Assembly: GCA_044225365.1 (NCBI GenBank)
Contig: JBGAIQ010000012.1
Span: 64,001-128,000, forward strand
Source of the DNA: Planctomycetota bacterium
GTDB taxonomy: Bacteria > Planctomycetota > B15-G4 > JADJEK01
Reading direction: 5' to 3'
Length of the DNA stretch: 64,000 bases
Both the position numbers and the translations under genes were made by a program. Numbering within the stretch: position 1 is the stretch's first letter; the number at the start of each line of letters is the position of its first letter. Shown one piece after another: positions 4,567-23,694 of the stretch. Under the pieces are notes generated by a model, which was given only the letters and a program-made list of their open reading frames with translations, did no database searches and had not been told where the DNA came from.

Positions 4567-5670
4567 TCACGGCTTTTCGAGCAGCTTCTTCAAGCTCGCG
4601 GCGGCGCGGTCGTCCGGCTTCTTCGCGAGAGCGATGTTGGTGTTCGCCAACGCCCCTTGAATATCGCCCGCGCGGCGCTGCACGAGCGCTGCGGCGATGT
4701 AGCCTTCGGGGCGGTTCGGGGCGAGTGCGATGAGGCGGGCGGACGCGTAACGCAGCACGCTCTCATCCTCCAGCATTGCGCCGACGTCGACGAGCTTCAG
4801 CAACGCCTCGACATCTTCGGCCTGCGTGGAGTCCTTCGTGAGCGCGAGCAGAAGTGCCCGGGCCTCGACGGGCCGCCGCAGTTCGATGAGGCAGCTCGCG
4901 CGCAAGAGCTGCAGATCGCGACGCTGATCGTTCGGCGGCGTCGTGAGCACCTTTGCGAGCGCCGACTCGGCTTGCGAGTAGTGACCGAGTTGCGCGTGGA
5001 TTCGAGCGAGGTCCTCGAGCAGCGATGCGTCATCGGGATCGAGCGCGACGGCCTGCTCGAAGTGCTTCAGCGCTTCCTCGGGTTTCTTCTCCATCAGGTC
5101 GATGTGGCCGAGCGCCTGTTTGTAGCCGGCTTGCGATCCAGCATCGCCATGAGCCGTTTCGAGGAGATCTCGCGCTTCCGCGAACCGATGCAGTCCGATC
5201 AGGATCTCGGCCGTGACGAGACCGTACTTCGGGTTCGATGTGTCCTTGCCGAGAGCCGTTTGATAGTGCGACAGCGCCGAGTCGAGCTCGTTGATCCGCT
5301 CGTACACGACGCCTTTGTAGTATTCGATCTCCGCGTCGGCAGGATCGATCCGCGATGCCTTGTCGAGGCTGTCGAGAGCCGCGACCGAGATGCCCTTCTC
5401 GAGGAGGACGCGGGCCCGCAGGATGTGAGCGTTTGGAACGCGGTCGTAGTTCGCGAGCGAGCGATCGACGCTCGCCAGCGCGAGATCGAGATTGCCCGAG
5501 GTGAACTGCTGGAAGGCGAGATCGTAGTCCGCTGCGGCCTTCAGTTTCTTGTGCCGTAGGTCGGCCTGATCGAGCCCTTCCTGCGTGTACTTGCCGTGCC
5601 CACCGGTGCACCCGGTCAGCGTGAGAGCTGCGACGACGAAGATGCCTGCGAATTGGGGTCCGCGAAGCAT
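4567..5670 (-). CDS. TPR lipoprotein, probable secretin pilotin (TadD/PilF-like)
   Basis: Lipobox LTG-C after a hydrophobic stretch, multiple TPR-like helical repeats, directly downstream of the secretin gene. Confidence 0.75.
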   Translation of the reverse strand: MLRGPQFAGIFVVAALTLTGCTGGHGKYTQEGLDQADLRHKKLKAAADYDLAFQQFTSGNLDLALASVDRSLANYDRVPNAHILRARVLLEKGISVAALDSLDKASRIDPADAEIEYYKGVVYERINELDSALSHYQTALGKDTSNPKYGLVTAEILIGLHRFAEARDLLETAHGDAGSQAGYKQALGHIDLMEKKPEEALKHFEQAVALDPDDASLLEDLARIHAQLGHYSQAESALAKVLTTPPNDQRRDLQLLRASCLIELRRPVEARALLLALTKDSTQAEDVEALLKLVDVGAMLEDESVLRYASARLIALAPNRPEGYIAAALVQRRAGDIQGALANTNIALAKKPDDRAAASLKKLLEKP

Positions 5671-5741
5671 GGGAACTCCTGGCCCAGGATCGGGTCGCGA
5701 CGAAGAAGACGATGCGCGCGCGCTGCGCGAGAGGCCTCGAA

Positions 5742-7790
5742 TCAGTTGCCGCCGGTGCCGGCACCGCCGCCCGTGCCCCCGCCGTTGCCTGCTCCATTGC
5801 TGGGCGGCGTCGTCGGAGGTGCGTCGGCCGGGTTCTCGGCGGGCGGCTCGCTAGCGGGTTCGTCGGCGGCGGGTTCTTCGGGCGTCTCGACGCCCATCTC
5901 TTCCTCCGCCGGTACTTCCGCACCGCGCGCTTCGGGGAAGTCCTTGTCGAGCTCACCGGTGACGATGCGCTCCAGCATGCTGCGGGTCGGCCAATAGCGC
6001 TCGTCCGTGAGCTGCTCCTGGAGGCGAATCATCTCGGGCTGTTGCGGATGGAGCTGCAGCGAGCAGCGCAATTGGAAGCGTGCCCAGTCGTACTCGCCCT
6101 CGGAGGCGTTCTTCTGCGCGCGAAGATTGAACATCGCGCTCATCTTCTCGCGGCTCCACGGCAGGAGGCCGAGACGCGAACCGACGCGCACGCGCTCGTA
6201 GTAGGCGAGGCCTTCCTGGCCTTGCTGCGCGAGCACGTTCTCCGACATCACCGTCGGCTTGATCATGAAGATGATCTCGTCGCGCTTCAGGTGGTCGTCC
6301 TGACCTTCGAACGCGTGCCCGACGAGCGGGAGGTCGCCGGCCCAGGGGACCTGCGAACGGCTGCGTGAGACGTCTTCGCGGAACAGACCACCGAGGATCG
6401 CGGTGTGACCCTCCGGAACGAGCACGTCGGTGAGCACCGTCTGGATGTTCTCGTCCGGGATCTGCTGATTCACGCCGTTCTGCGATTCGACGTCGCGGAA
6501 CACGACCTGCGAGACCTTCGGTGCGAGCTCCATGCGCACCCGCCCGTCCTTCAGGACGAACGGCCGAATGTCGAGCTGAACACCCGTGTCGATGAACTTG
6601 ATCGTCTGCAGCACCTGGTTCTCGACGACCGTCGTCTCGAGGTAGCCGACGCGCGTACCCACGAGGACCTTCGCGCGTTGACGATTGAGCGCAAGGACCT
6701 TCGGATTCGAGAGGAGCGTCACGTCGGTGATCTGATCGAGCGCGCGGATGAAGACGCCGACGTCATCGCCCGCGGTGATCCCGAGCTTCAGCGTTCCCGC
6801 GCCCGCCGCGACGTTGCCGGGATTGCTGAGAACGAAGTTGCGGTTCAGGTTCGTGACCGGCGGTGCCTTCACCGTCGTGCCATCGGCACCGAGGCCGTTG
6901 ATCGTGTCGGGGAAACCGAAGAAGCTCGAGAACTGGACGCCGTCGAGCAGTGCGAAGTCCACGCCGAACGCGTTCTGTTCATCGAGCGTGACTTGGAGCA
7001 CCGTGGCTTCGATCAGCACCTGCTCGGGCTGCGTGTCGAGCGATCGCAGGAAAGACTCGACGCGTTCGACGTTCTCTTCGACGTCATGAATGACGATCGC
7101 GCTCTCCAGCGCGTATTCGTCCTTCTCGGGCGTGTAGATCCCGGAGTCGCTCGACTGACTGCTGCCGGAGTTCGACGAGCCGCCGGCCGCACCACCCGCG
7201 GCACTGCTTCCGCCGCCGCCGCTATCCCCGCCGAGATCCTTCGTCGGAGTGATCTTGCCCTTGGGGGAGAGCAGGGGCTGCGCATACTCCATCGCGTCCG
7301 CGGGGCGCAGATAGTCGAGATGGATGCGCCGGCTCGACAGATTGTTCGGCGAGGAGCGGCGCGCCGCGAGCTCGTCCTTCGTGAAGACGTAGATGACGTC
7401 CCCGTTCTGCTCCCAACCGAGACCATTCGGAGTGAGCAAGCCGTCGAGCGCCGCTTCGACCGTGACGCCGTAGAGCGTCGCGTTGACCGTCTTCTGCACT
7501 CCGTCGCTCGGGACGATGTTGCGTCGCGCGGCCACGGCAAGTTTCGAGAGGACGTTCGTGACGTCATCGTTCTGGACGACGATGTCGCACGTCCCGAACT
7601 CCGTGACGCGCACTTCGGACGAACGGATCACGAGTTTGTCGGCGGGATTCGCCTTGTTCTCCTGGGGGACGTTGACACCGGGAGTCGGTGTCTTCGCGTC
7701 CTGCGCCAGTGCGGCCGAGTGGGCAGCTCCGACGCAGAAGACCGACCAGAAGAGGAAAGCGTGCTTGTCGGATCGAGGGCGAAGAGTCAT
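5742..7790 (-). CDS. Outer-membrane secretin (PilQ/GspD-like: STN/N0, N3 and secretin domain)
   Basis: QVLIEATV, LLSNPKVLALNRQRAKVLVG, DTGVQLDIRP, ILGGLF, VPWAGDLPLVGHAF and EIIFMIKPTV motifs, plus a signal-peptide-like N-terminus. Start is 7790 or 7808. Confidence 0.92.
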   Translation of the reverse strand: MTLRPRSDKHAFLFWSVFCVGAAHSAALAQDAKTPTPGVNVPQENKANPADKLVIRSSEVRVTEFGTCDIVVQNDDVTNVLSKLAVAARRNIVPSDGVQKTVNATLYGVTVEAALDGLLTPNGLGWEQNGDVIYVFTKDELAARRSSPNNLSSRRIHLDYLRPADAMEYAQPLLSPKGKITPTKDLGGDSGGGGSSAAGGAAGGSSNSGSSQSSDSGIYTPEKDEYALESAIVIHDVEENVERVESFLRSLDTQPEQVLIEATVLQVTLDEQNAFGVDFALLDGVQFSSFFGFPDTINGLGADGTTVKAPPVTNLNRNFVLSNPGNVAAGAGTLKLGITAGDDVGVFIRALDQITDVTLLSNPKVLALNRQRAKVLVGTRVGYLETTVVENQVLQTIKFIDTGVQLDIRPFVLKDGRVRMELAPKVSQVVFRDVESQNGVNQQIPDENIQTVLTDVLVPEGHTAILGGLFREDVSRSRSQVPWAGDLPLVGHAFEGQDDHLKRDEIIFMIKPTVMSENVLAQQGQEGLAYYERVRVGSRLGLLPWSREKMSAMFNLRAQKNASEGEYDWARFQLRCSLQLHPQQPEMIRLQEQLTDERYWPTRSMLERIVTGELDKDFPEARGAEVPAEEEMGVETPEEPAADEPASEPPAENPADAPPTTPPSNGAGNGGGTGGGAGTGGN

Positions 7791-8151
7791 CGTTCGTTCA
7801 ACTCTCATTCGACGCGACCAATGGAACGGGTGCCTGCGCACCGCGACTGCGGCGACCCGTCGACGAGGTTCGTCCGCACTTTCCAACGCTGTCTTGCTCT
7901 TGCGGGAGATAGAGTCCTGAAAGGTATTGGCCCCGAGGCTTCGGATCTCGCGAGAATCGCAAGGATCCATCCTCCTGTTCAGCCAGTCCCGCACCGCAAG
8001 GGCGAACTTTACGGGTTTCATCCGGAAGGCGTGACGAAGGACTCTAGAAAAAACGTGCAGTTCACGCTTTGCTGCGGATTCAGCGCGTGGCGGCGACTCC
8101 GCCGAATCGGACTTTTGGACGGGTGTCCTTGAATCGAGATCGGAGTGAACC

Positions 8152-9300
8152 ATGACCGAGGCCGGCAATAGTGAAGCGACCACCCTGACCGAGCCCGCAC
8201 CGGTAATCGAGTCACCGGAGTCGAAAGCCTATCGCGCGGGCGTCGAGTTCTTCCTCGCGCCGCTCGTCCCGCTCCTCGCCGACGAGTCGATCTCCGAGAT
8301 CATGGTCAACGGTCCGAGCGACATCTACATCGAGCGTGGCGGCAAGATCGAGGTGAGCGGCGTCCATTTCCGGGACGAAGACGAACTGCTCGCCGCTGCG
8401 AACAACATCGCTCAATACGTCGGCAAGAGCATCAGCCCCGCGGATCCAATTCTCGACGGTCGTCTGCCCGATGGCTCCCGCGTGTGTATCGTCCTGGCGC
8501 CGATCGCGGCCGGCGGAACCTCGATCAATATTCGCCGCTTCCTGCGCCGCGCCGTCACTCCGCAGTTCCTCCTCGATCGCAAGGCGATCACGCCGGAGGC
8601 GCTCGAGTTCATCCTTCTTGCCGTCGAAGCGGAGCTCAACGTCGTCGTCAGCGGTGGTACGGGCTCTGGTAAGACAACCCTTCTCAACATCCTCTCGACC
8701 GCCTTCTCCGACAGTCAGCGAATCGTGGTCATCGAGGACACCCGCGAACTGCAGATCCAAAAGCGGCACGTCGTCCAGATGGAAGCGCGGCCGGCCGACG
8801 TGTACGGCAAGGGGCAGATCACGGTCCGCGACCTGTTCGTAACCTCCCTTCGTATGCGTCCCGACCGCATCGTGGTCGGCGAAGTCCGTCGCGGCGAAGC
8901 CCTCGACATGGTGCAGGCGATGACCTCCGGCCACCGCGGCTCGCTCGCCACCCTTCACGCCGACACGCCTTCACAGGCCTGCGGGCGTCTCGAGACGATG
9001 TGTCTCCTCGCGGACGTCGGACTACCCCTCCAGGCGCTGCGACGACAGATCGCGCTCGCGCTCGACATCGTCATCCAGGTCGCGCGTCTCCATGATGGAC
9101 GCCGTCTCGTCACGCACATCTCGGAGATCGAACTCGACGAAGCCACGCTCACGTATCAGATCCACGACATCTTCCATCTCGACACCAGCGACGGCACACC
9201 GCGACTCGTCTACACGGGACGCAAGCCGAAGCTCGCGGCCGAGATCGGCTGGCGCGGACTCAGTTCAAAAGTTCGCGAGACGAAGGCAATCTTCACCTGA
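8152..9300 (+). CDS. cpaF: CpaF/TadA pilus ATPase (short copy)
   Basis: ISEIMVNG, DGRLPDGSR, Walker [42 protein letters not shown]. Confidence 0.93.
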   Translation: MTEAGNSEATTLTEPAPVIESPESKAYRAGVEFFLAPLVPLLADESISEIMVNGPSDIYIERGGKIEVSGVHFRDEDELLAAANNIAQYVGKSISPADPILDGRLPDGSRVCIVLAPIAAGGTSINIRRFLRRAVTPQFLLDRKAITPEALEFILLAVEAELNVVVSGGTGSGKTTLLNILSTAFSDSQRIVVIEDTRELQIQKRHVVQMEARPADVYGKGQITVRDLFVTSLRMRPDRIVVGEVRRGEALDMVQAMTSGHRGSLATLHADTPSQACGRLETMCLLADVGLPLQALRRQIALALDIVIQVARLHDGRRLVTHISEIELDEATLTYQIHDIFHLDTSDGTPRLVYTGRKPKLAAEIGWRGLSSKVRETKAIFT

Positions 9301-9370
9301 TATCGGTTATCGTGACCTCGCACCCCCGGTCGACATCGCGTCGATCGCGGAGAGCTTGGGTTCACGAATT

Positions 9371-9432
9371 CGGGCGATTTCGCCCGCCGTGGATCGAGTG
9401 GGTCCGGTGTTCCACCCATGGCTTCGGGTGGA
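9371..9432 (+). other. Two GC-rich hairpins in the cpaF-flp intergenic region
   Basis: CGGGCGA-TT-TCGCCCG (9371-9386) and TCCACCC...GGGTGGA (9411-9432). No U-tract follows. Confidence 0.35.
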
Positions 9433-9444
9433 TCGAGAGATCGA

Positions 9445-9654
9445 GTGAATACGGAAACCGAGAATCAGTTCCTCGCGACGACGCGCCAACTGCCGGAGCT
9501 CGCCTCCGACGAGAGCGGCCAGGTCGTCATCGAGTGGACGTTGATCACTGCTACCGTGGTGATCCCGATGGGACTCATGGGTCCCGGGCTCGTCAACATG
9601 ATGTTCTACTACTTCTATCGCATCGCCGGGACCATCGCGCTGCCCTTCCCGTGA
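9445..9654 (+). CDS. Flp-like pilin 1
   Basis: GTG start. LASDESG|QVVIEW followed by a hydrophobic helix, 69 aa, in Tad context. Confidence 0.7.
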   Translation: MNTETENQFLATTRQLPELASDESGQVVIEWTLITATVVIPMGLMGPGLVNMMFYYFYRIAGTIALPFP

Positions 9655-9740
9655 CCACCCGTGAGTTCGAGTTCGCGAGCTGCGTCGTCGATGCAGCGAC
9701 AAGACAAGACGTGAATCGCCCGCAAAAGGAGAATCCTGCC

Positions 9741-9968
9741 GTGTCCAACGAAACCACGACCCGTCCGGTGTCTTCCCTCAACCGCTTCAAGAACGCGATG
9801 CGCGAGCTGCATGCGGACGAATCGGGACCGAACACGGTCGAGTGGATCCTCCTGATCATCATCGCGCTCGTTCTCGTCGTCGCGATCTTCGTGTTCGCGA
9901 ACTTCGTGATCGACAAGTTCAAGCAGAAGGAAAACCAGGTCACTTCGGACGCCTTCTTGACCAAGTGA
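9741..9968 (+). CDS. flp: Flp family pilin 2 (probable major pilin)
   Basis: AGGAG RBS then GTG 9741. LHADESG|PNTVEWILLIIIALVLVVAIFVF, 75 aa. Confidence 0.8.
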   Translation: MSNETTTRPVSSLNRFKNAMRELHADESGPNTVEWILLIIIALVLVVAIFVFANFVIDKFKQKENQVTSDAFLTK

Positions 9969-10036
9969 CGTGAACGCCAGCGAGATCTCCGCGTGGACGG
10001 GAGCCATCCCGCCGCGGAGGCTCGTGGAGTCTCGCG

Positions 10037-10828
10037 ATGGATTCCGACACGCTTCCTCCAGCCACGACGGTCGCTACGCCCTCGGGCGAGGCGGACGCCG
10101 TGGTGAATCCGCCGAGTTCGACGGCGGAATCTCCGACGGGGAGTCCGGCGGTTGCGATCGACGCACGCGTCGCCTGGATCGCGGGACTCTGCCTCACGGC
10201 GGTGGTCGCATCGTCGCGTCAGATCCTCGCGAAGACGCCGGATCATGGGTACTTCGCAGACTCCATCGCGTGGGTCGTCCTCGGCACGGCGGCCGCGCTC
10301 GACATCGCGTTCCGCCGCATTCCGAACGTTCTCACCTATCCCGCGATCTTGCTGGGACTGCTCATCAACGTCGTGATGCCGGCCATCACCGCGGTGATCG
10401 GACCGAACGTCGTCCAATCGTGGCTCGGCGGCAGCGATACGCCGCGCGACGGACTTCTCGGCTTCGGCTCGTGCGCGATCTTCGGGCTCGTGAGCTTCAT
10501 GTTGCGCGGGGTCGGAGGCGGCGACGCCAAGACGCTCGGCGCGTTCGGCGCATTGCTTGGTTTCTCGCGAGCTTGGCCCGCCCTCTTCAACTGCCTGCTC
10601 GTCGGCGCCGTGATCAGCATCGTCAATCTCGCGGTGCGCGGCGAGTTCATCCGCAAGCTGCAAGCGCTGTTCTGTTCCATGTTCACCGCCGTGATCCTGT
10701 CGCGGCGTCCCGATCACGTTCAGGTGTTCGCGAATCGCGAAGCGCCGTTCGTGCTCTCGCTGTTCCTGGGTTTCGCGCTATCGCGATGGGTGGAACTCCA
10801 CCGCTTCGTGTTCGGATTCATCGGGTGA
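10037..10828 (+). CDS. cpaA: A24 family prepilin peptidase (CpaA/TadV)
   Basis: D..FRRIPN and GVGGGDAK catalytic aspartate motifs, C-terminal PF motif, multi-TM, immediately after the pilins. Confidence 0.9.
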   Translation: MDSDTLPPATTVATPSGEADAVVNPPSSTAESPTGSPAVAIDARVAWIAGLCLTAVVASSRQILAKTPDHGYFADSIAWVVLGTAAALDIAFRRIPNVLTYPAILLGLLINVVMPAITAVIGPNVVQSWLGGSDTPRDGLLGFGSCAIFGLVSFMLRGVGGGDAKTLGAFGALLGFSRAWPALFNCLLVGAVISIVNLAVRGEFIRKLQALFCSMFTAVILSRRPDHVQVFANREAPFVLSLFLGFALSRWVELHRFVFGFIG

Positions 10829-10831
10829 CGC

Positions 10832-11752
10832 ATGCGCTCTCGTTTTGACCGCCTGCTGCGCGTGGCTCCTGCGACCGTCGCTCTCTTGACGGTCGGAGTC
10901 GTCGCCACGATGCTCGCCTCGCGACCCGATCGACTCGCGCAGTCGTTCGGTCTCGACTTCGCCGAAGAAAGCGCGCGACTCGTCATCGGTTGCATGGTCG
11001 TCGCCTCCGTGGCGTTCCTCGCGGCGGCGTACAAGCTGCTGCGAACCCTTCTCGCGTCGGGGAAGAGCTTCGTCGAATGGCGCAAGCGCAACGAACCGCA
11101 GAAGGGTTTTGCCGAGGCCGGCGTGGTGATGATCGAGTTCACGCTCCTGGCGCCCACGGTCTGGCTCATCATGGCGATCGTGGTGCAGCTCGCGCTCATC
11201 GCCGAAGCCACGCTCGTCGTCCGCTATGCCGCTTACACCGCAGTGCGCGCGGCGATCGTCCGCACCGAGCGGAACGCGATCGGGCAGGAGGATCTCGGAG
11301 TGAGTCCCGGCAAGGTAGAGGAGTCCGCAAAGCTCGTGCTCTGCTCCCTCTCACCCAAGATCCCCAACACCGACAACGACTCCGCGCACGCGATGCTCAA
11401 CATCTTCGCCGCGCAGAACGGCGTGTGGGGCGACAAGAATTTCCATCGGCGATATCAGTACGCGGATGACTCGACGACCGTGAAGACCACGCTCGACGAT
11501 CCGCCGATCGAGATGCCTTTCGTCGGGGACACGGGCCTTCCGAACCTGTTCGCGCCGAAGCTCGTCGAATGCGAGGTCACGTACCTGTACGCGACGCAGA
11601 TCCCCGGCGTCACGCTCCTCCCTGGCATCCTTCAGGTTTCGGACGGCTACAAGGCATTCAAGATCATCCAGCGCGTGCGAATGCAGAGCACGGGTGCGCG
11701 TCAATCCAATCCCATCGGCGTCGCCGGCACGATGAATACGATCTTCCCATGA
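10832..11752 (+). CDS. TadE-like minor pilin with N-terminal membrane extension
   Basis: AG|VVMIEFTLLAP...YAAYTAVRAA TadE motif beginning at residue 97. Confidence 0.8.
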   Translation: MRSRFDRLLRVAPATVALLTVGVVATMLASRPDRLAQSFGLDFAEESARLVIGCMVVASVAFLAAAYKLLRTLLASGKSFVEWRKRNEPQKGFAEAGVVMIEFTLLAPTVWLIMAIVVQLALIAEATLVVRYAAYTAVRAAIVRTERNAIGQEDLGVSPGKVEESAKLVLCSLSPKIPNTDNDSAHAMLNIFAAQNGVWGDKNFHRRYQYADDSTTVKTTLDDPPIEMPFVGDTGLPNLFAPKLVECEVTYLYATQIPGVTLLPGILQVSDGYKAFKIIQRVRMQSTGARQSNPIGVAGTMNTIFP

Positions 11753-13102: not shown

Positions 13103-13711
13103 ATGAGCAATCATCGTTCAGCGCGGCGTCGCAGCGCACGGTCCGAACGCGGCACCGTCGCGGCCGAGTCGAGCCTGGTCCTGATCGTCCTCCTCTTCTT
13201 CCTCCTGATGTCTCCTGCGATCTGGAAGATGTGGTGGAACGAGCACATCGCGCGCGCCGAGGCGGAACGCGACACGTTCCGGCTGACCTCGACTCCCGCC
13301 GACATCAGCTCCGCGACGAATTTCCAGCCCGAACTCGATTTCGCGACGCAGGGCGACTTGATCGGCCTTGGCTTGTGGGAATTGCACAAGCCGGAAACCG
13401 CCGATATCCCGAACATCTCCGACATCAGCTCCGGCAACGAGCTCAAGGACTTCCCGAACAAGGTCGTGATTGGGCGAGCGACGCGACACGTCCAGTACAG
13501 CTCTGGCTGGAGTCAGTATCGCGGCGAGTTCGACATCTTCCGCTACTCGTACACCCTGCGCCCGAGCTGGAATTGGCAGGGGTACCCGCTCTTCCACACG
13601 CAGGACATGTCGGAGCGCGGCAAGATCAAGGACTGGATGGAAACGGCGTATCGCGACACGCTCACCAGCACGGTGACCGACAAGCTCGCGCTCAAGACCG
13701 ATCCGTTCTGA
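13103..13711 (+). CDS. TadE/F-like minor pilin
   Basis: SERG|TVAAESSLVLIVLLFFLLM prepilin-like N-terminus, last gene of the pilin run. Confidence 0.65.
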   Translation: MSNHRSARRRSARSERGTVAAESSLVLIVLLFFLLMSPAIWKMWWNEHIARAEAERDTFRLTSTPADISSATNFQPELDFATQGDLIGLGLWELHKPETADIPNISDISSGNELKDFPNKVVIGRATRHVQYSSGWSQYRGEFDIFRYSYTLRPSWNWQGYPLFHTQDMSERGKIKDWMETAYRDTLTSTVTDKLALKTDPF

Positions 13712-15190: not shown

Positions 15191-15292
15191 GGGCGAACAT
15201 CGTAGGGGCGCACGGCAGTGCGCCCGATATGGGATCACACAAAACGTCGTGCGTCCGCAGAACGGCCATCGAACGGCAACGCCGGACATGCA

Positions 15293-15332: not shown

Positions 15333-15385
15333 ATTCGCGATGGGGTGCCGTCCAGTCGATGCCGGCGACTGGGAGCGCCCGATCT

Positions 15386-18355
15386 CTAGAGTGATTGTAG
15401 GTGAATCATGTCACGGTCAAGGACGAAGGGACGCGACAGGACGAACACCTGGTCCTTCGTGAACTTGTCCGACTTCTTGAACTGAACGTACATCGACGTG
15501 TCGCCATAGGTCAGGTGCGCATGGACGCGAACGTCCTCGGCGCCCTGCTTCTGCAGCAGTTCCTCGAGGCGATGGCAGACGGCCCAGGCGTCGACACGGA
15601 CTTCCATCTGGAGGCGCGGCTTCGCCGGTTCGAGTCGCGCGAGGAGTCGGTTGTACTCCTCTTCGCTGAACACGGGACCCGTGAGCCGGATCTTCGTGAG
15701 GTGTGGGACGAGCTCGACCTTCAAGCATCCGTTCGGAACGTTGATCTCGAGGAACGCCTTGAACTGCTCCGCCGTGAGGCCGAGCAGCGTTCCACGGTCG
15801 ATCAGGTCGAGGCCGGGATCACCCGTCATCATTCGCGCTGCGGCCATCGCGAGCTTGCCGGAGTCGCCGCCCGCGCTCTCGATCGCCGACAGCGTCGCGA
15901 GTTCGCGATGGATGTCGGGCAGTCGCAGCTTGGCGTCGGCGTTGCCGATCGCGGCGAGCTCGATCGTCTGCTGCAGCTCGGCGAGCAGCTCCTTGCGACG
16001 CTTCGGGATCGCGCCGGAGGATTGGTCGGCCTTCTCCAGTGCGTTGAGATCGACCGAGATCGCGCGCATTCGCGTGTACGCGGTGTTGTCGCCGCCCATC
16101 GCGCGTTGGATGACCTCACCCAGTTCGCGGATCAGGTCCTCGCGTTTCTGGAACATCGAAACGAGCGGCTTGCCCGTGCGCTTCGCGTCCTCCGCTTCGG
16201 CGATCTGGTTCATCTCGGCGCGAATCTCGCGCAGGCGTTGGATCGCCGCGGGATCTCCCGCAGCCGCACGATCGGCGAGCGCGGCCATCTCGCGGACGAG
16301 AGCCGAGCGCCGGTCGTTGCCGCCGCCCGCCTTCATGTCCTCGGCCTCGAGCGAGGCGAGCTCGGTCTGAACTTCCTTCAACCGCTTGATCGCGTCGGGA
16401 TCGCCCTTCGCGGCCTTGTCGAGGAGGTCGTTCATCTCGTTGAGGAGCGCCGCACGCTTCGCTTCGCGGGCTGCGATCGCGTTCGGATCGCCCTGCCCCG
16501 AACCGCCGCCCTTCTCGACGCTCTTGTTGGCGAGCTTGCGCAGCTCCTCGTTGATCTCCTTCACGCGCTTCGCGGCGTTCTTGTCGCCCTGCGCCGCGAG
16601 CTTCATCTGCTCGTCGAGCTCCTGCTGGAGAGCGACGCGCTTCGCCGCGTCGGCGTCGCCCGTCATCGGCTCGAGCTGAGCGAGCTCTTTTCGGATCTGC
16701 TCGAGGCGCTTGATCGCGGCCTGGTCGCCGTTCGCCGCCTTCTCGACGAGCGCGTCCATCTCGGAGAGCAGCTTCTCGCGCTTGTCGGCGATGCGCTGCT
16801 CGGAGAGGGCCGCGACGACGATCGTCACCGCGCGTTCGGGATCGTCACCCGTTTGCTCGGTGTAGTCGACCGTCTTGTAGCGCGGGTGCTCCATCTGGAT
16901 GCGGAACTGGCCGTGAGCGATCTGCACCTGGCCGTTGCCGTTCTGATCGAGCGGCACCGGGATGGCGTCGTTCGGTTTGCCGTTCTCACGGATCGTCACG
17001 TCCCACGCCGGCACGGGCGGCACGGTCGAGAACTTGACGAGCACCGTCTTCGGCGCCGCGCGCGAGATGTTGAACAGCTTGTCGGCGAGCACCGTCGTGC
17101 CCTCGACGACGACGACCTTCGCGGGGGCATCGCCCACCGCGCCCACCGGGATCGTGCCGGTGAACTGCCCGGAGTCGTCGACCTGCAGCGGATCGCCGTT
17201 CTCGGAGTTGCCTTTGTGCTTCACCTTCAGAACGGCGTGTTCCGGTTTGTCCTTCACGGTGCCGCGGATCACCACCTCGGGGCGATCCGTCGTGAAGGTT
17301 TCCTTCTCGACCGTGACCACGGGTTTTACCGAGACCGACCGCCACCAGATGAAACCGAGCGTTCCGACCGCGGCGATCACCCACAGCAGGATCGAGAGGA
17401 GGACGAGCACGTTCGCCTTCGCGGGCGGCGCATCCATCTCCTCGAGTTCGCCGGGCGTGCGCCCGCTTCCGCGCATCACGAACCCGCCGATCGCGCCGAG
17501 TCCTTCCTCGGCCGAAGCGAGGCGTTCGCGCAGCGGCTTCGCGAGCATCTTCGCAATGAGGTTCGAGAGGTCCTCGGGGAAGTCCGCGATGACGTCCTTG
17601 ATCTTCGGCAGCGTCATCTGCGCCGAGGCATGCCAGTACATCCACTTCGGCTTCTCGTCCATCGACGTCGTTTCCGCGGCCGCCTTGGTCGCGTACGGGT
17701 CGTAGATCGACGGGAACTGCTTGCGGTAGAGGGTGCGCCCGAGCGCGTACTCGTAGGCCGCCATGCCCAGCGAGTAGAGGTCCATCTTCGGCGACTCTTG
17801 GCCGAGCGACGAATCGAGCAGCTCGGGGGCCGCGTACTGGACCGTCGAGAAATTCATCGTGTCTTCGACGCCCTGGCGCTTCGCGAGACCGAAGTCCGTG
17901 ATCTGCCAGTGACCGTGACGCGACCGCACGATGTTGTTCGGCTTGATGTCGCGATGCAGGATCTGCGGATCGGCGTGATGCACCACGGACAACGCTTTCA
18001 GCGTGTCGTGCAGCATCTCGCGCACGTCCTCGGGGCTCGCCGGCTGATCGGAGATCCAGTGCTTCAGGTTCTTGCCCGAGAGCTCCATCCCGATCCACGG
18101 ACCGACTTCGTCGTCGATGCCGAAGCCGAAGACCTCGACGATGTACGGGCTCGACCCGACGGCGAGCAGGAGTTCGACCTCCTTGCGCAGGACGTCGAGC
18201 TGCTCTTCGGAATCGGCCTTCCAGTTCTGCAGGATCTTCACGGCGGCGGGACGCGTGATCCCGTGGCCCATGTGCTGGATGGCCTTCCAGACGACGGTGT
18301 ATCCGCCCGGATCGATCTGTTCGGTCAGTTCGAAGTCACCGAGTCGTGTCTTCAT
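15386..18355 (-). CDS. Transmembrane Hanks-type Ser/Thr protein kinase with large extracytoplasmic region
   Basis: AAVKIL, HRDIKPNN, DFGLAK, YAAPE and DLYSLG motifs, then TM VLVLLSILLWVIAAVGTLGFIWW, then beta-rich Ig-like segments, six helical repeats and a C-terminal alpha/beta domain. Confidence 0.92.
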   Translation of the reverse strand: MKTRLGDFELTEQIDPGGYTVVWKAIQHMGHGITRPAAVKILQNWKADSEEQLDVLRKEVELLLAVGSSPYIVEVFGFGIDDEVGPWIGMELSGKNLKHWISDQPASPEDVREMLHDTLKALSVVHHADPQILHRDIKPNNIVRSRHGHWQITDFGLAKRQGVEDTMNFSTVQYAAPELLDSSLGQESPKMDLYSLGMAAYEYALGRTLYRKQFPSIYDPYATKAAAETTSMDEKPKWMYWHASAQMTLPKIKDVIADFPEDLSNLIAKMLAKPLRERLASAEEGLGAIGGFVMRGSGRTPGELEEMDAPPAKANVLVLLSILLWVIAAVGTLGFIWWRSVSVKPVVTVEKETFTTDRPEVVIRGTVKDKPEHAVLKVKHKGNSENGDPLQVDDSGQFTGTIPVGAVGDAPAKVVVVEGTTVLADKLFNISRAAPKTVLVKFSTVPPVPAWDVTIRENGKPNDAIPVPLDQNGNGQVQIAHGQFRIQMEHPRYKTVDYTEQTGDDPERAVTIVVAALSEQRIADKREKLLSEMDALVEKAANGDQAAIKRLEQIRKELAQLEPMTGDADAAKRVALQQELDEQMKLAAQGDKNAAKRVKEINEELRKLANKSVEKGGGSGQGDPNAIAAREAKRAALLNEMNDLLDKAAKGDPDAIKRLKEVQTELASLEAEDMKAGGGNDRRSALVREMAALADRAAAGDPAAIQRLREIRAEMNQIAEAEDAKRTGKPLVSMFQKREDLIRELGEVIQRAMGGDNTAYTRMRAISVDLNALEKADQSSGAIPKRRKELLAELQQTIELAAIGNADAKLRLPDIHRELATLSAIESAGGDSGKLAMAAARMMTGDPGLDLIDRGTLLGLTAEQFKAFLEINVPNGCLKVELVPHLTKIRLTGPVFSEEEYNRLLARLEPAKPRLQMEVRVDAWAVCHRLEELLQKQGAEDVRVHAHLTYGDTSMYVQFKKSDKFTKDQVFVLSRPFVLDRDMIHLQSL
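15887..16783 (-). repeat. Six ~38-aa helical-hairpin protein repeats inside the kinase
   Basis: Consensus (K/R)RxxLxxE(M/L)xxxxxxAAxGDxxAxxR(L/V/M)xx(I/V)xx(E/D)L, read six times. Confidence 0.85.
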
Positions 18356-18358
18356 CGC

Positions 18359-19174
18359 CTATTCCTTCACCTGTTTCGAAGTCTCTGCCAATCGCTTCCG
18401 AACGAACCAGACGAGCGCGTCCGCGATGGTCTCGTCGGCGTTCGCGTCGACTTGCGCCGACGCTGCGGACTGATCCCAGCCCATCACCACGCCGAGAGTT
18501 CGTCGCGGGTCGCTTCCCGTTGCTTCGGGGAATCGATCCGTACTGAGGCCGCGTCCCGTGGGCGCACGCAGTCCGCAAAGTGCGGCCTGCAGTTGCGACC
18601 AACGGGTCGTCGCCATCTTGTAGTTGCCGGCCTGCTCGAAGCGCCACGCATCGTTGTAGAGCGTGACCGCTTCTGGGGGCAGGCGATTCTCGTTGACCCA
18701 CTTCTCCATGCGATCCCCGATCCGCATGTAGGCCTGACGCCAGTGGACCGCGGTCATCGGCACCGGCTGAGCCTGCTTGTCGCCGGAGAGGAGCATCGCT
18801 CCGCCGATCCCGAGGATCAGCAAGATGACGATGAGCAGGAGGAGGAGTGAGGTGCGCGACAGTCCGCCCGGCCCGGCCGCGGCGTGGCTCTCGACGACGA
18901 GCTTCATCTTCGGCGAGATCTGGATCTCTTCGCCGCTCGCGACGCGAGTCTCTTCCGTGATGCGCTTGCCGCGGACCTTGGTTCCCGCTGCCGCGAGGTT
19001 GACGACGACGAGCCGCGTGCCGGTATCGCGCACGACGAGGTGTTCCCACGCGATCGATTCGTCGCGCAGTTGCACGCGCGCCGTGGGCGCTCGGCCGATC
19101 ACCACATCGCCGTTCTCGACGCGATGGCTGGTTCCGTCATCCGCTCCGCCAATGACTTTGAGGTAGAAGACCAT
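18359..19174 (-). CDS. FHA-domain bitopic membrane protein
   Basis: VVIGRAP...DESIAWEH FHA fold, TM LLLLLIVILLILGIGGAMLL, helical C-terminal domain. Start re-assigned to ATG 19174. Confidence 0.85.
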   Translation of the reverse strand: MVFYLKVIGGADDGTSHRVENGDVVIGRAPTARVQLRDESIAWEHLVVRDTGTRLVVVNLAAAGTKVRGKRITEETRVASGEEIQISPKMKLVVESHAAAGPGGLSRTSLLLLLIVILLILGIGGAMLLSGDKQAQPVPMTAVHWRQAYMRIGDRMEKWVNENRLPPEAVTLYNDAWRFEQAGNYKMATTRWSQLQAALCGLRAPTGRGLSTDRFPEATGSDPRRTLGVVMGWDQSAASAQVDANADETIADALVWFVRKRLAETSKQVKE

Positions 19175-19191
19175 GTCTCTTTCCGTCGGCC

Positions 19192-20130
19192 TCAGCCGAT
19201 GTTCAGACCTTCGTACCAGTACCGAACGATGAACGGCGCGAACAGGAGTTCGAGCGTCGCCGCGAAGACGAGCATGCCCGGCACGAGCACCATGACCTTT
19301 GCCTTGCCCGCGGTCTCCGTCGCTTCCTGGACTCGACGGACCCGCACCGCATCGGACAGTCGCTCGAGCGTCTCCGCGATCGGCCGTCCGAGTTCCTCGG
19401 ACTGGATCACGTCGTCGGTGAACTGCCGCACGACCGGCAACGGCGCGCGCTTCGCGAGATTCTCGTAGGCCTGCCGCAATGTCACGCCCATCTCGAGATC
19501 CGTGAGGATCGCCCGGAACTCGGTGCCCACCGCTTGGCCCTGGAAGTCGCTGCCGACCCGATCGATCGCGATCGGCATCGAGGCACCCGCGCGCATCGTG
19601 AGGGTCAAGAGGTCGAGAACGTAGGGCATCGTTCGGGATATCGACTTCGCGCGCTCGACGCCCGCAGTCGAAAGTTGCGCCGAAACGAGGCTCGGACCCG
19701 CGAGCAGGAAGACGAGGGCGAACGGCGCCGCGAGCGGCTTCAGCATCAAGAGGATCAGCAGGAACGGAACGGTCAGCACGAGGCCGACGAGGAACGAGAG
19801 CGCGAGCACCTCTTCGTCGTCGAGGCCACCCGGCCATCCCGCCTCGGCATAACGAGAACGCAGCGACTCGCGGAACGAGTCGACGGGGAGCCTTCGCGTA
19901 ATGACGGTGAAGGCCGGCAGGATCGCGAGGACCGACTTCGAAAGGCTCGACTGCGCCGTGAGGCTCTCGCGGCGCAGTCGGCGCTGCGCGTCGCCGATGA
20001 CGGCGGCGACCGGAACGGACGACAGCTTGAGGCGTCGGACGAGCAGATAGACGACGATCGCGACGGAGATCCCGAGGAGGATGGCGCAGAGGAACGGTAG
20101 CAGTGCGAACAGGCGGTCAGACGTCGGCAT
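19192..20130 (-). CDS. tadC: TadC (T2SSF family) inner-membrane platform protein
   Basis: MPYVLDLLTLTMRAG, EELGRPIAETL and AGKAKVMVLVP motifs, follows tadB. Confidence 0.88.
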   Translation of the reverse strand: MPTSDRLFALLPFLCAILLGISVAIVVYLLVRRLKLSSVPVAAVIGDAQRRLRRESLTAQSSLSKSVLAILPAFTVITRRLPVDSFRESLRSRYAEAGWPGGLDDEEVLALSFLVGLVLTVPFLLILLMLKPLAAPFALVFLLAGPSLVSAQLSTAGVERAKSISRTMPYVLDLLTLTMRAGASMPIAIDRVGSDFQGQAVGTEFRAILTDLEMGVTLRQAYENLAKRAPLPVVRQFTDDVIQSEELGRPIAETLERLSDAVRVRRVQEATETAGKAKVMVLVPGMLVFAATLELLFAPFIVRYWYEGLNIG

Positions 20131-20959
20131 TGACGATCCTCCAGGCCCAGAACGTACCGGCGGCGGTGAGCAGCACCGCGATGAGGAGCAGCGCCTGCCC
20201 GAAGGGCCGCGTGAACAGCCAGCCGACGGCCTGCATGTCGATCACCGTCGTGAAACCGAGCATGATGAACGGAGCGAACGCGAGCACCTTGATGTTCATG
20301 CGACCTTCCGAGGTCGCGACGAACACTTCCTTGCGCATGCGATCGACCGATTCGAGAGAGTGCGCGAGACGCTCGAGCGTCTTCACGACGTTGCCGCCCA
20401 TGCGCTGGTTGATGACGAGCGCGGACGCGAAGAGCGTGAAGTCCTGCAGCGCGAGCCGGCGCTTCGCTTCCTCGATCGTCGAGGCGAAGTCGGCGCCCAT
20501 GTTCCAGTAGTTCGCGATGATGCGAAACTCGGTGCGCAGCGGTTCTTCACCGCGCTCGGCGACGCGTTCGATCGCCTGCACCAGCGACATGCCGGACGCG
20601 ACGCCCGAGCTGAGCTGGAGCACGGCCTTCGGCAACTGATCGTTCAGGAGCTTGCGCCGCTTCTGCCACGCGCGGTCGAGCAGGATCTTCGGCATGATCA
20701 CGCCGACGAACCAGAACGCGAGCAGGATCATCGGCACGGGCAGGAACAGGACGATCACGATCGGTGTGACGAGGGTGAAGATCCAGAAGATCGTCACGCT
20801 CCTGCGACCGTCGTAGGGCTCAGGCGACAAGCGCCAGTGCATGTGCTCGAGATGGGCGACGTCGCGCCGGAACTTCGCGAGGATCTGCCAACGCATCGAG
20901 ATGATCAGCAGCGTGATCGACAGACCGATCATCGCCGCGATCGCGAGACTCATCATCAT
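20117..20959 (-). CDS. tadB: TadB (T2SSF family) inner-membrane platform protein
   Basis: QLPKAV.LSSGVASG.SL, EPLRTEF, QRMGGN and TSEGRM motifs. ATG 20959 overlaps the ATPase stop. Confidence 0.9.
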   Translation of the reverse strand: MMMSLAIAAMIGLSITLLIISMRWQILAKFRRDVAHLEHMHWRLSPEPYDGRRSVTIFWIFTLVTPIVIVLFLPVPMILLAFWFVGVIMPKILLDRAWQKRRKLLNDQLPKAVLQLSSGVASGMSLVQAIERVAERGEEPLRTEFRIIANYWNMGADFASTIEEAKRRLALQDFTLFASALVINQRMGGNVVKTLERLAHSLESVDRMRKEVFVATSEGRMNIKVLAFAPFIMLGFTTVIDMQAVGWLFTRPFGQALLLIAVLLTAAGTFWAWRIVNADV

Positions 20960-22845
20960 GCGCTCGCCCTCCCGAACCAACGATCGAGATCGATGAGCCG
21001 CCGCTCGACGAGGTCGGCCATGAACGACGGCATGTAACCCGTGAGTTCGAGTCGCGGATTCTTGTTGCCGCCGGTCTGGCGCATGATGTCGCGCACCTCG
21101 ACCTCGCCGGTGTGCGGATGGATCCCGATCACTTCGGTGATCTGCGTGATGAGGCGCTTGCCGCTCTTCAGGCGGCGGATGAACACGATCATCTCGACGG
21201 CTTGCGAAACCTGACGGCGGATCGCGGCGATCGGCATCTCGACGGCCATGAGGCACATCGTTTCGATACGGGCGATCGCGTCGTTCGCGGAGTTCGAGTG
21301 GATCGTGGTCATCGACCCGTCGTGGCCCGTGTTCATCGCCTGCAGCATGTCGAACGCTTCTTCACCACGACACTCACCGACGATCACGCGATCGGGGCGC
21401 ATGCGCAGGGCGTTCTTCACGAGGTCGCGGATCGTGTACGAGCCGGTGCCTTCGACGTTCGACGGCCGCGTCTCGAGCGACACGACGTGTTCCTGCTGCA
21501 GCTGGAGCTCGGCGGCGTCCTCGATCGTCACGATGCGCTCGTCCGACGGGATGAACGCGGAGAGCACGTTGAGGAGCGTCGTCTTGCCGGAGCCGGTGCC
21601 GCCCGCGACCACGATGTTCTTGCGCGAGACCACGGCCGCTTCGAGCAGCGCATAGGCCGAATCCGTCATCGTGCCCCATTCGACGAGATTGCGAGCGTTG
21701 GGCCGCCGCGTGGGGAAACGCCGGATCGTGAGGCAAGGCCCCTTGAGCGCGAGGGGCGGGATGACGGCGTTGACGCGCGAGCCGTCCTTGAGGCGGGCGT
21801 CGACGAGCGGCGTCGAACGATCGATGCGACGGCCGAGCGGCGCGACGATGCGTTCGATGACGGCGACCAGTGCTTCGTCGCCGAGGAAAGTGCGGTTCGA
21901 GCGCAGCACCTTGCCGGCGCGCTCGACGTACACCTGCGTCGGGCTCACGATCATGATTTCCGTGATCGACGGCGTATCGAGCAGGTCCTGCAGCGGACCG
22001 AGCCCGAACACCATGTCGCAGATGACCTTCTTCAGGAACCGCGCGACGAGATAGAACTGGACGTTCTCGGGCGTTTCGTCGATCACGCCCGTCACGTTCT
22101 CGCGCAGACCGGTGTTGATCTTCTCGAAGTCCTCGCCGAACGAGTCCTTCGTGCCGAGCAGCTTCATGCGCTTCATGAGGCGACGCGTGAACTCGTCCGC
22201 GGCTTCCTCGAGCGCGATGTTGACTCCGGGGACGTTGATGCGACCGACGTCGAGCGTCGACGCCGCAGCCTGCTTCGAGAGCGCCGTGAGCAGGCGGTTC
22301 TCGTACACCATCGTGAGCATGCGCTTGCGCGTGAGCGGCGAGCCGAACAGCCGCTGCTGATACTCGCCGTGCATCAACTCATCGATGAAGTTGTTGATCT
22401 GCTGGAGCGACTCCTCGCTCGCTTCGAGATTCTCCTTACCCGCCCGCCGCAGGTCGAGCTTGCGGAGGACTTCGGTGTGGAGTTCGCGCTGCAGCGCGTT
22501 CAGGTCCTCGATCGCCGCGTCCGCTTCGGACGTGTCGGGTTTGTCGTCCTCCTGGAGGAGGTTGATCACGAACTCGGCGAGACGAACCTGGCTGATCGGC
22601 TTCAGCAGCGCCGACTTGCCGGGCGCGAGCTTCACGCCGTCGACGACGGCGGTCGTCGCCGCCGGATGCACGAGCAGTTCCCAGCCCTGCTCGGTGCGAT
22701 CGACCTGGATGTGGACCCGCGAGACGAAGCGCGAGGTCGTGAGCGGGATCGCGCACTCCTCGCTGCGTCCGATCGTGAATCCGGCCACGCCTTCGTAGCC
22801 GACCCACTGCTTGTTCTTGAGCGTGTCCTGGATGACGACGCGCAT
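20956..22845 (-). CDS. cpaF: FHA-domain-fused CpaF/TadA pilus ATPase
   Basis: N-terminal FTIGRS...FVSRVH (FHA), then [65 protein letters not shown]. Confidence 0.93.
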
Positions 22846-22851
22846 CTTGGC

Positions 22852-23694
22852 TCAGCCCCCCTGCGTGCCGCTCGCCGCGGGCGCGGGGGAGTTCGGCGCC
22901 GGAACGCGAGAGTTGGGCCGCAGGAGCAGGGTGATGTTGTTGGCGCTCGCCGACATCGCCTGGATCATCTCGACGGCCTGTTCGGGCGTGAGTTCGAGCG
23001 TGATCACGGAGCCATTCGATCCGCCGCCTTCACCGCCGGTGAACAGGAACTGCTGACGGCTGCCGCCGAGGCTCGAACCGATGCCGACGATGCGGATGTT
23101 CGAGAGGATCTCGGTCGACTTGAACTCGTCGGGGTAGGCCGTCTTGTCGGCGAGCTTCGAGAAGATCGCGCCGATCGCGGCCGAGGGGTTGTTCGGATCG
23201 ATCGTCGGATTGGCGCCGACGGCCTTGTTCTCGCGCGGCAGGTGATAGGTGGCGATCACGTCGACGCGATCGCCCGGCAACAGCAATCCACCCATGAGGT
23301 TCTCGTTGCTGACGCGCACGCCGAGAGCGCGCGTACCGGGCGCGAGGTTCGTGTCCTGGATCGGCTTCAGGTGGGCGTACTGGAGCGGCGTGCCCGCCGG
23401 GATCGGCATTCCGATCCGCTGGCCGCGCAGCGACTCCTTCTCGTCGGCCTTGTACAGCGTCTTCACGAACGGAGCGAGCGTGGAGCCCGCGGGGACCTGC
23501 ATCGCCTGGAGGTCGCGATCGGGATCGATCGTGTGGTTCGCCTCGAGGTCGTTCACGACGCGGAGGACGTTCTCCTTCGGTTCGGGAGGCAGGCCGGTGT
23601 TCGATGTCGCTCCCTGGATGTAGGTGAACGCGAGTCCGGTGGCGAAGACGCCGGCGACGACTGCGATCAGCAGGAGCAACTTGTTGTTTTCCAT
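22852..23694 (-). CDS. cpaB: Flp pilus assembly protein CpaB/RcpC
   Basis: N-terminal TM, SAF-like region, PGTRALGV..GGLLLPGDRVDVI, ILSNIRIVGIG and ITLELTPEQA motifs. Confidence 0.92.
   Translation of the reverse strand: MENNKLLLLIAVVAGVFATGLAFTYIQGATSNTGLPPEPKENVLRVVNDLEANHTIDPDRDLQAMQVPAGSTLAPFVKTLYKADEKESLRGQRIGMPIPAGTPLQYAHLKPIQDTNLAPGTRALGVRVSNENLMGGLLLPGDRVDVIATYHLPRENKAVGANPTIDPNNPSAAIGAIFSKLADKTAYPDEFKSTEILSNIRIVGIGSSLGGSRQQFLFTGGEGGGSNGSVITLELTPEQAVEMIQAMSASANNITLLLRPNSRVPAPNSPAPAASGTQGG

Follow-up and report, generated by a model that had tools for sequence, protein, structure and literature searches.

A candidate kinase-gated Tad machine with two CpaF-type ATPases and a GspD/PilQ-type secretin in Planctomycetota

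What sets a Tad pilus in motion? Tad pili are widespread machines of adhesion, surface sensing and, in Myxococcus, killing, and to our knowledge the trigger of their assembly is largely unknown. The question is raised by a locus in which a membrane Ser/Thr kinase is the last gene of a Tad core operon and in which the motor ATPase of the same operon carries an FHA domain. This locus spans positions 4567-23694 of a stretch of 64,000 nucleotides (nt) with 64-66% G+C from a Planctomycetota bacterium (assembly GCA_044225365.1, contig JBGAIQ010000012.1, positions 64,001 to 128,000 of the forward strand), and this whole stretch is called the window here. An earlier note, made from the letters of the window, had read the locus as a candidate new system, a Tad pilus with two ATPases and a non-Tad secretin that is controlled by the kinase and by FHA proteins. 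We put the probability at roughly 0.55 that the locus encodes a complete, lineage-specific Tad (type IVc) machine of Phycisphaerae-type Planctomycetota which is gated by phosphorylation and related in design to Kil of Myxococcus xanthus, a reading drawn from sequence comparison. It is carried by the conservation of the gene order among relatives and by the joint fate of the kinase and the FHA domain of the motor.

Genes were assigned from the list of open reading frames (ORFs) and from Pfam and NCBIfam profile scores of the window proteins. According to the ORF list, long ORFs tile the region 4567-23694 without a gap. The features are the following.

4567-5670, minus strand: TPR lipoprotein, candidate pilotin or secretin partner (TadD/PilW/PilF-like by role); many TPR families, lipobox LTGC.
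5742 to about 7808, minus strand: secretin of the GspD/PilQ type with N-terminal STN/N-domains; Secretin 125 bits.
8152-9300, plus strand: second short CpaF-type ATPase (ATPase2), 382 amino acids (aa), without FHA; T2SSE 173 bits.
9418-9654, plus strand: Flp-like pilin 1; DESG, then QVVIEW and a hydrophobic helix; no family match.
About 9798 to 9968, plus strand: Flp-like pilin 2; DESG, then PNTVEW; Flp1_like 22 bits, cut-off of 33.5 not reached.
10037-10828, plus strand: CpaA/TadV prepilin peptidase; Peptidase_A24 44.9 bits, cut-off 26.5.
10832-11752, plus strand: TadE-like minor pilin; TadE 24.9 bits, cut-off 22.9.
11746-13101, plus strand: TadG-like protein; Tad (PF13400) 26.8-27.1 bits, cut-off 22.3.
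13103-13711, plus strand: second TadE-like or pseudopilin-like protein (tadE2); no Pfam match, N-terminal hydrophobic helix, orthologues in relatives.
13721-15289, minus strand: GT-C/PMT_2 glycosyltransferase; PMT_2 60.5 bits; ArnT-like 73.6 bits, below its cut-off.
15320-15300, minus strand: terminator-like hairpin behind the kinase stop; 7 pairs, 6 of them G-C, then TTTCC.
15386-18355, minus strand: receptor-type Hanks Ser/Thr kinase, 989 aa; Pkinase 117 bits.
18359-19174, minus strand: FHA protein with a transmembrane helix (FHA-TM), 271 aa; FHA 37 bits.
19192-20130, minus strand: TadC platform protein; T2SSF 50.5 bits, cut-off 25.2.
20117-20962, minus strand: TadB platform protein; T2SSF 67.4 bits, cut-off 25.2.
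20956-22845, minus strand: FHA-CpaF motor ATPase, 629 aa, class III architecture; FHA 27.1 bits, T2SSE 197 bits.
22852-23694, minus strand: CpaB/RcpC; TIGR03177 107.7 bits, cut-off 71; RcpC 52.8 bits.

The three gene blocks of the earlier note (secretin with TPR lipoprotein, cpaF-flp-flp-cpaA-tadE-tadG-tadE, and cpaB through to the kinase) are all recovered with the coordinates it had given them. The order and the blocks are as it described, but it overlooked the glycosyltransferase gene at 13721-15289 inside the span. The core operon (cpaB, FHA-CpaF, tadB, tadC, FHA-TM, kinase) is as tightly packed as had been claimed, with neighbouring genes overlapping by at most 14 nt or separated by at most 17 nt. 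For the claim that the operon ends in a terminator, a hairpin does stand just behind the kinase stop, but the terminator scan of the window overall was not above chance (15 sites against 13.1 expected from shuffles), so only the position of the hairpin at 15320-15300 speaks for it.

Does the kinase belong to the machine, or does it only lie beside it? Among 40 relatives searched, full-length orthologues of FHA-CpaF were found in G001, G004 and G009 (68-69% identity) and in G024 (40%). A scan with one genome per species gave five more, L005-L009, with 47-66% identity, and their records are Planctomycetota, Phycisphaerae, Phycisphaerales or Phycisphaeraceae metagenome-assembled genomes (MAGs). 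Full-length orthologues of FHA-TM occur in 4 of 42 genomes of the class of the window and in 10 of 401 sampled Planctomycetota genomes, distributed over four family-level groups, while in the other 18 matching genomes of the 401 the match is limited to the FHA domain. The neighbourhoods were compared by tblastn with the window proteins; L091 and L096 repeat L008 and L009, and each pair was counted once. The order cpaB, FHA-CpaF, tadB, tadC, FHA-TM, kinase is kept in all 13 genomes with an examinable junction, namely the window, G001, G004, L005, L006, L007, G172, G338, G079, G378, G205, G237 and G221, and the identity of FHA-CpaF to the window protein ranges from 47 to 69% across these conserved loci. 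The contig of G009, a fourteenth genome, breaks off within tadC.

The genes around this core are arranged in more than one way. In G172, G205, G237 and G221 the secretin and TPR genes stand directly upstream of cpaB on the same strand, and in G338, G079, G205, G237 and G221 ATPase2 follows directly after the kinase. G001 and G004 are arranged as in the window, and the contig with the secretin/ATPase2 block ends in the 3' part of the kinase gene. Since the order of secretin, TPR lipoprotein and ATPase2 differs between lineages, their linkage has survived rearrangement. A secretin orthologue (39-54% identity) was present in 5 of 5 further genomes searched, and the TPR lipoprotein gene adjoins the secretin gene in L085, L086, L091 and L095-L097.

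The genome of the window contains 90 Pkinase matches in 6.5 Mb, next to 16 T2SSE ATPase matches. When set against a survey that reported few or no Ser/Thr kinases in sampled 'Phycisphaera' genomes (PMC11032199), its lineage is unusually kinase-rich, and in such a genome a kinase gene might come to lie beside tad genes by accident. The synteny survey already refutes this explanation, and we give it next to no weight. Common kinases cannot explain an adjacency that all 13 genomes share, even where CpaF identity is as low as 47% and where the blocks have been rearranged; the gap between the kinase gene and the FHA-TM gene is only 3 nt; and of 75 CpaF loci from other phyla that served as control, only 5 had a kinase-domain match in the flanking sequence retrieved. 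The conservation of kinase and FHA genes beside tad genes, on which the earlier note had staked its proposal, thus extends over at least four family-level groups of Planctomycetota and several orders.

Some other loci show looser arrangements. In G024 (L004, L088) a kinase gene lies divergently upstream of cpaB, and the second short ATPase, encoded on a different contig, is likewise adjoined by a divergent kinase gene. A kinase gene is close to the CpaF locus in L010, L012 and L069, whose records are Chloroflexota, Anaerolineae and Caldisericota, and in L012 an FHA match lies beside the kinase. The pairing of tad genes with a kinase is therefore not confined to Planctomycetota.

Can the kinase phosphorylate, and can the motor read the product? 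The kinase of the window consists of a kinase domain (residues 9-280), a single membrane helix (311-338) and a periplasmic part of about 650 residues, which would fit the proposal of the earlier note that an extracytoplasmic signal activates the kinase. All catalytic motifs are present (K40, E59, HRD134-136, K138, N141, DFG154-156), and by this motif set it is predicted to be an active Hanks-type Ser/Thr kinase. The complete catalytic set is found in 8 of the 13 loci, with the minor variants HND in G378, KPAH in L006 and DFS in G001 and G172. The activation-loop threonines T166 and T171 occur in all eight of these kinases, and at the +3 position relative to T166 seven of them have F, V or L. 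A hydrophobic residue three positions after a phosphothreonine fits the preference of many bacterial FHA domains. In the remaining loci (G338, G079, G205, G237 and G221) the catalytic residues are gone: HRD has become YHR and DFG has become GAM in G338 and G079, while G205, G237 and G221 have R for K40, FNP for HRD and SYT for DFG. Both threonines are absent from the pseudokinases that were aligned.

The FHA domain of FHA-CpaF (residues 24-89) aligns by profile to the FHA domain of EmbR with GR and SRxH in register, and the pocket residues R27, S42 and H45 are present. Among 10 orthologues G26, S38 and S42 are invariant and R27 is found in 9. When the pocket is compared with the state of the kinase, the two go together. 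In the 8 catalytically complete loci every CpaF FHA domain keeps GR and S[RK], the histidine being changed to Gln in G001. With the dead kinases of G338 and G079 the CpaF FHA domain carries R27S and R43P, and with those of G205, G237 and G221 it carries R43S and H45V. The arginine of the GR motif in FHA-TM is replaced by Ser in the 4 dead-kinase loci where it is alignable, which leaves out the copy of G221 (L097). Kinase catalysis and FHA pocket are kept together and lost together, and this supports a link from kinase to FHA domain.

If the machine is gated by phosphorylation, the window kinase would be active and would phosphorylate threonines, with T166 and T171 of its own activation loop as the best candidates. 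The FHA domain of FHA-CpaF would dock on a phosphothreonine, by which the motor would be brought to, or held at, the TadBC platform. Such docking may replace the job that TadZ does elsewhere. There is no ParA-like ORF of the TadZ/CpaE kind at the locus, where all ORFs are assigned, the rest of the genome not having been searched. The kinase protein and FHA-TM would in addition be fixed structural parts of the machine. ATPase2, which has neither an FHA domain nor a three-helix bundle, would be a second motor outside phospho-control and may drive the opposite step.

The presence of two CpaF-type ATPases, FHA-CpaF and ATPase2, is confirmed. The profile of FHA-CpaF scores 423 bits against CpaF structures and that of ATPase2 284 bits, and with NCBIfam TIGR03819 they reach 316 and 277 bits, respectively, both below the cut-off of 373. 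Walker A, Walker B and His-box regions are intact in both, and the Walker A/B regions of FHA-CpaF are invariant among 10 orthologues. Residues 232-580 of FHA-CpaF align to CpaF residues 100-445, which cover the three-helix bundle (3HB), the N-terminal domain (NTD) and the ATPase domain, so that the protein has the architecture of a class III CpaF: FHA, linker, 3HB, NTD and ATPase domain. According to the structural passages of PMC12019362, CpaF in cryo-EM has a disordered region of 79 residues followed by the three-helix bundle, NTD and CAD; the same passages give 3HB+NTD+CAD as the minimum CpaF architecture and report that deletion of the bundle abolished expression. The alignment of ATPase2 to Caulobacter CpaF (9e24) begins only at CpaF residue 149, and the 35 residues that ATPase2 has ahead of this point leave no room for a three-helix bundle. 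As 118 of its 120 best relatives are equally short (337-419 aa), the short form is not an artefact of truncation. The few named relatives are called CpaF family or type II secretion/type IV pilus ATPase and come from Phycisphaerae-type or other Planctomycetota MAGs.

In a tree of 94 CpaF cores, obtained by a quick LG+G4 search, unrooted, with five near-duplicate loci left out and no KilF row, the 8 rows of the ATPase2 clade stand apart from all other rows with an SH-aLRT (Shimodaira-Hasegawa-like approximate likelihood ratio test) value of 97. The 11 FHA-CpaF rows form a clade (SH-aLRT 96) that is nested among classical CpaF. The two motors appear by this tree to be old paralogues, with ATPase2 an old separate branch. 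Its clade includes the second copy of G024 and an orphan paralogue on contig C71 of the same genome as the window. This orphan is a CpaF-type ATPase of 358 aa (L089, C71:74000-93999, at 8375-9451 on the minus strand) that is not accompanied by tad genes; next to it are a gene for a GSDH/PKD protein and ORFs without assignment, and a Ser/Thr kinase gene is about 5 kb away. Another T2SSE copy of this genome, on C84, is only distantly similar.

The secretin also departs from the Tad type. Its ORF extends to 8183, but the Met at 7808, where a signal peptide begins, is the probable start, and the protein then has 688 aa. STN scores 28.1 bits against a cut-off of 28.4 and Secretin_N 21.1 bits, just below its cut-off. 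In the NCBIfam ranking GspD (182 bits) and PilQ (173 bits) come first, both below their cut-offs. Against PDB structures, the best scores are 98.8 bits for GspD of Pseudomonas aeruginosa (5wln) and 87.5 bits for PilQ (aligned from residue 78), compared with 47 bits for the Tad secretin RcpA (8odn), where only the C-terminal domain is aligned. These scores support a secretin that is closer to GspD/PilQ than to RcpA, and the non-Tad secretin of the earlier note stands. The TPR lipoprotein reaches no specific family above cut-off (PilW 59.6 bits against 154), and a role as pilotin is plausible from its sequence and position.

The pilin genes have counterparts in relatives as well. Orthologues of Flp-like pilin 1 were found in L005, L085-L087 and L091, and the second TadE-like gene has orthologues at the same position in L005, L085, L086 and L091. 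We take the motif of the Flp processing site to be G/xxxxE[YW]; both pilin ORFs carry DESG and then xxxxEW, and a hydrophobic helix is present in each. The glycosyltransferase gene (13721-15289) fills the space that separates the last gene of the pilin operon from the terminator-like hairpin of the kinase gene. It has no match in the locus of any relative (tblastn, E 1e-4), and in G001 tadE2 and the kinase stop are only about 300 nt apart. It had been considered as a conserved part that modifies pilins, which we rejected since the loci of relatives hold no counterpart, and we treat it as a probable insertion specific to this genome. The flanks of the system, 23944-29527 on the minus strand and 1808-4489 on the plus strand, look unrelated to the pilus. 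The flanking genes include an EEP-family nuclease/phosphatase, a CarboxypepD_reg-repeat protein, an arabinofuranosidase and a glutamine-dependent NAD synthetase.

Several results weigh against a phosphorylation-gated machine. HRD, DFG and the activation-loop threonines are gone from the five pseudokinase loci, which still keep the gene, so catalysis is not what holds it in the operon, and a protein that is kept even when dead must also have a role that is independent of phosphorylation and probably structural. The co-degeneration of kinase and FHA domains lies within one family-level group and may go back to a single evolutionary event or to no more than two. The FHA domain of CpaF is divergent, with best PDB E-values of only 0.02-0.07, and neither FHA domain of the window has the conserved Asn: in FHA-CpaF it is missing from the NG loop, and FHA-TM has Ala there. 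FHA-TM of the window also has Ala at the position of the phosphate-binding Ser, while R28 and H45 are kept. Among the best 150 FHA-TM matches in 50%-identity representatives, 87 are 230-300 aa long and thus similar in size to the window protein. When the window protein is added to them, 74 of the 88 family members keep the pocket Arg and 56 the Ser; as most members keep the pocket, it looks ancestral to the family and eroded in the lineage of the window. The earlier note had pointed out that FHA domains read phosphothreonine. Of the two in the locus, only the FHA domain of CpaF keeps both Arg and Ser, and it is, from its residues, the credible reader in the window genome. A PP2C_2 phosphatase is not found in the window, and the sole match in the genome is on contig C64, PP2C_2 being the only phosphatase family searched. 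A search of sequencing runs for the locus listed no RNA run that carries the operon. The reference rows of the CpaF tree had been picked for their similarity to FHA-CpaF, and a long-branch warning applies to the ATPase2 clade. The roles proposed for the two ATPases are guesses.

How much of this machine could work with no phosphorylation at all? The main rival is that the kinase-like protein and both FHA domains are purely structural, with little or no phospho-control even in the window genome, in parallel to SctD/PrgH, the FHA-TM ring protein of type III secretion, and to EssB, the pseudokinase of type VIIb secretion. We regard this as a real but doubtful possibility. The five loci with dead kinases point in its direction, for they retain not only the gene but also its position and its C-terminal domain, and so does FHA-TM of the window, which lacks both the pocket Ser and the Asn. 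FHA-TM (cytoplasmic FHA domain, one membrane helix and a helical periplasmic domain, model pLDDT 84) has the layout of SctD, and EscD/YscD and PscD are among its weaker matches; both fold searches were filled by FHA matches, so that the periplasmic domain itself was barely probed.

The periplasmic part of the kinase bears on the same question. It contains two beta-sandwich (immunoglobulin-like, Ig-like) domains, five to seven helical-hairpin repeats and a C-terminal domain, and the structure model of residues 338-989 has a pLDDT of 80.9. The helical stalk at residues of about 520-850 is formed by a hairpin repeat of about 50 residues marked by GDxxAxxRL. By motif counts there are five copies in the window, nine in G004, 18 in the incomplete gene of G001 and none in several orthologues; the assemblies of G004 and G001 break inside the kinase gene. 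The C-terminal domain has about 135 residues, folded in the model into two alpha-beta-beta-alpha-beta units (model residues 525-584 and 586-651), and is conserved in all 8 aligned orthologues, pseudokinases included. We take alpha-beta-beta-alpha-beta to be the topology of the ring-building motif, which would suit a structural role. The sequence profile of this domain has no meaningful match in PDB (best E 0.07), and the fold searches with the whole model were filled by Ig-like and helical matches. Atlas scores for the domain are 0.80-0.85, with PrgH and BON at 0.80-0.81, a range that shuffled proteins also reach. The resemblance to ring-building or BON-type domains, a reading of the topology and of these weak matches, therefore provides leads only. 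The word-indexed search for the ectodomain gave only 5 relatives, too few for a census, and a complex prediction of kinase residues 1-520 with FHA-TM scored 0.00 against a mark of 0.32, which is no evidence either way.

Against a purely structural role stand the 8 of 13 loci that keep the catalytic residues, both threonines and the Arg and Ser of the CpaF FHA domain, these sets being lost together where they are lost. Such a pattern would be expected only if both catalysis and the reading of phosphothreonine are of use to the loci that have kept them. The proportions of pocket Arg and Ser kept in the FHA-TM family count against it likewise.

A different suggestion is that the locus makes no adhesive pilus but a Kil-like device for contact killing or secretion, in which a short Tad fibre or pseudopilus acts through the GspD/PilQ-type secretin and the kinase triggers it on contact. 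An FHA-CpaF motor and an additional FHA protein are common to Kil, the secretin scores closest to GspD of type II secretion, and the three TadE/G-like minor pilins recall the tip proteins of Kil as presented in parts of PMC12075869. Near-identical DNA was found in bioreactor and activated-sludge metagenomes, that is, in dense communities, where the two best holders may be the source sample itself. On the other hand, the features that define Kil (a short secretin without N0, a single ATPase, no TadG and no pilotin) are not those of this locus, and neither the ORF list nor Pfam shows a gene for an effector, a toxin or a needle-less type III system in the locus, a genome-wide type III search not having been made. 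We consider such a device unlikely.

The phosphorylation-gated machine could also be extended, in a form that we think quite improbable, to a periplasm-spanning kinase sensor which is built into the machine and serves as a phospho-switch between an extension and a retraction motor. The C-terminal domain of the kinase would contact the secretin or the outer membrane, and the stalk, with none to at least 18 repeats between relatives, would set the reach across the periplasm. Engagement of or load on the pilus or pore would be passed to the cytoplasmic kinase domain, and phosphorylation would pick the occupant of TadBC, FHA-CpaF through the phosphothreonine and otherwise the short ATPase. If true, phosphorylation would switch between extension and retraction in a class of pili for which a single bifunctional motor has been assumed.

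The gain from the phosphorylation-gated reading is that questions become specific. The phosphorylation cascade proposed for Kil lacks a named kinase in the passages available to us, and here a kinase is encoded at the end of the core operon. It is possible to name both the threonines that may serve for docking and the pocket of the motor that would read them, and relatives with naturally dead kinases are a built-in comparison, by which a vague cascade proposal is turned into questions for point mutants and for peptide binding. The locus also departs from the picture of one minimal bifunctional CpaF in two ways: a secretin of the GspD/PilQ type can apparently serve a Tad core, and a second CpaF paralogue that lacks the three-helix bundle has been stably retained.

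How new is the system when it is compared with known ones? FHA-CpaF itself is not new. It has been published as KilF of the Kil system of Myxococcus xanthus (Seef et al. 2021; the Kil passages of PMC8460266) and as 'class III CpaF' (the classification passages of PMC12019362). The part of the earlier claim that stands as a candidate novelty is the kinase in the Tad core operon, and no description of a kinase inside a Tad operon was found in the literature, as assessed chiefly at the level of abstracts and with supplements set aside. The FHA proteins, in which the Kil clusters are rich, were suggested in the Kil papers and in a 2025 review, by analogy to PpkA/Fha1, to act in a signalling cascade, and the passages concerned name no kinase (PMC8460266, PMC12428579). 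The word 'kinase' occurs 0 times in the main text of PMC8460266 and of PMC12075869, and in the main text of the latter neither FHA nor phosphoryl- occurs. A preprint on the Tad system of Bdellovibrio reports FHA, PilZ and histidine-kinase genes near tad genes. A parallel from another machine comes from a survey of variants of type VII secretion, in which membrane Ser/Thr kinases are paired with FHA-bearing ATPases (PMC11217815).

The class III motors in the excerpted parts of PMC12019362 come mostly from betaproteobacteria, and a cognate kinase is not discussed there; the present locus has, besides such a motor, a second CpaF paralogue that does not reach the 3HB+NTD+CAD minimum. The PpkA/Fha1/PppA pathway of the H1 type VI secretion system of P. 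aeruginosa, which is cited as a parallel in PMC11217815 and in the signalling passage of PMC8460266, likewise combines a membrane Hanks kinase that has a periplasmic domain with an FHA protein that promotes assembly. It belongs to another machine, however, and in the present locus it is the motor that carries the FHA domain. The likeness is one of mechanism by analogy and not a homology of systems.

With Kil, as described in the passages of PMC8460266, the locus shares the N-terminal FHA domain on the CpaF motor, at least one additional FHA protein in the cluster, homologues of CpaB, TadB and TadC, an Flp pilin, minor pilins and the lack of TadZ in the locus. This likeness is one of design, taken from descriptions, and the KilF sequence was not in the comparison. 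For Kil the same passages name no kinase, whereas here the core operon closes with a membrane kinase gene. The genes of Kil form two separate clusters. The other differences are two ATPases instead of one, a long GspD/PilQ-type secretin with N-terminal domains instead of a short one without N0, and a TadG-like gene and a TPR lipoprotein where Kil has neither TadG nor pilotin. With the canonical Tad systems (tad of Aggregatibacter, cpa of Caulobacter) it shares a CpaF-type ATPase, TadB/TadC, CpaB/RcpC, CpaA, Flp-like pilins, TadE/TadG-like proteins and a TPR lipoprotein. It differs from them in having no TadZ/CpaE at the locus, a secretin that is not of the RcpA/CpaC type, a built-in kinase with FHA proteins, and two ATPases, CpaF being described in the relevant part of PMC6920026 as a single bifunctional motor. 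With the wrong type of secretin and with TadZ absent from the locus it is not a canonical Tad system. Nor is it a Kil system, since it has a second ATPase, a secretin that is long, and genes for TadG-like and pilotin-like proteins; by the parts that it shares with each, we describe it as a locus that works like both.

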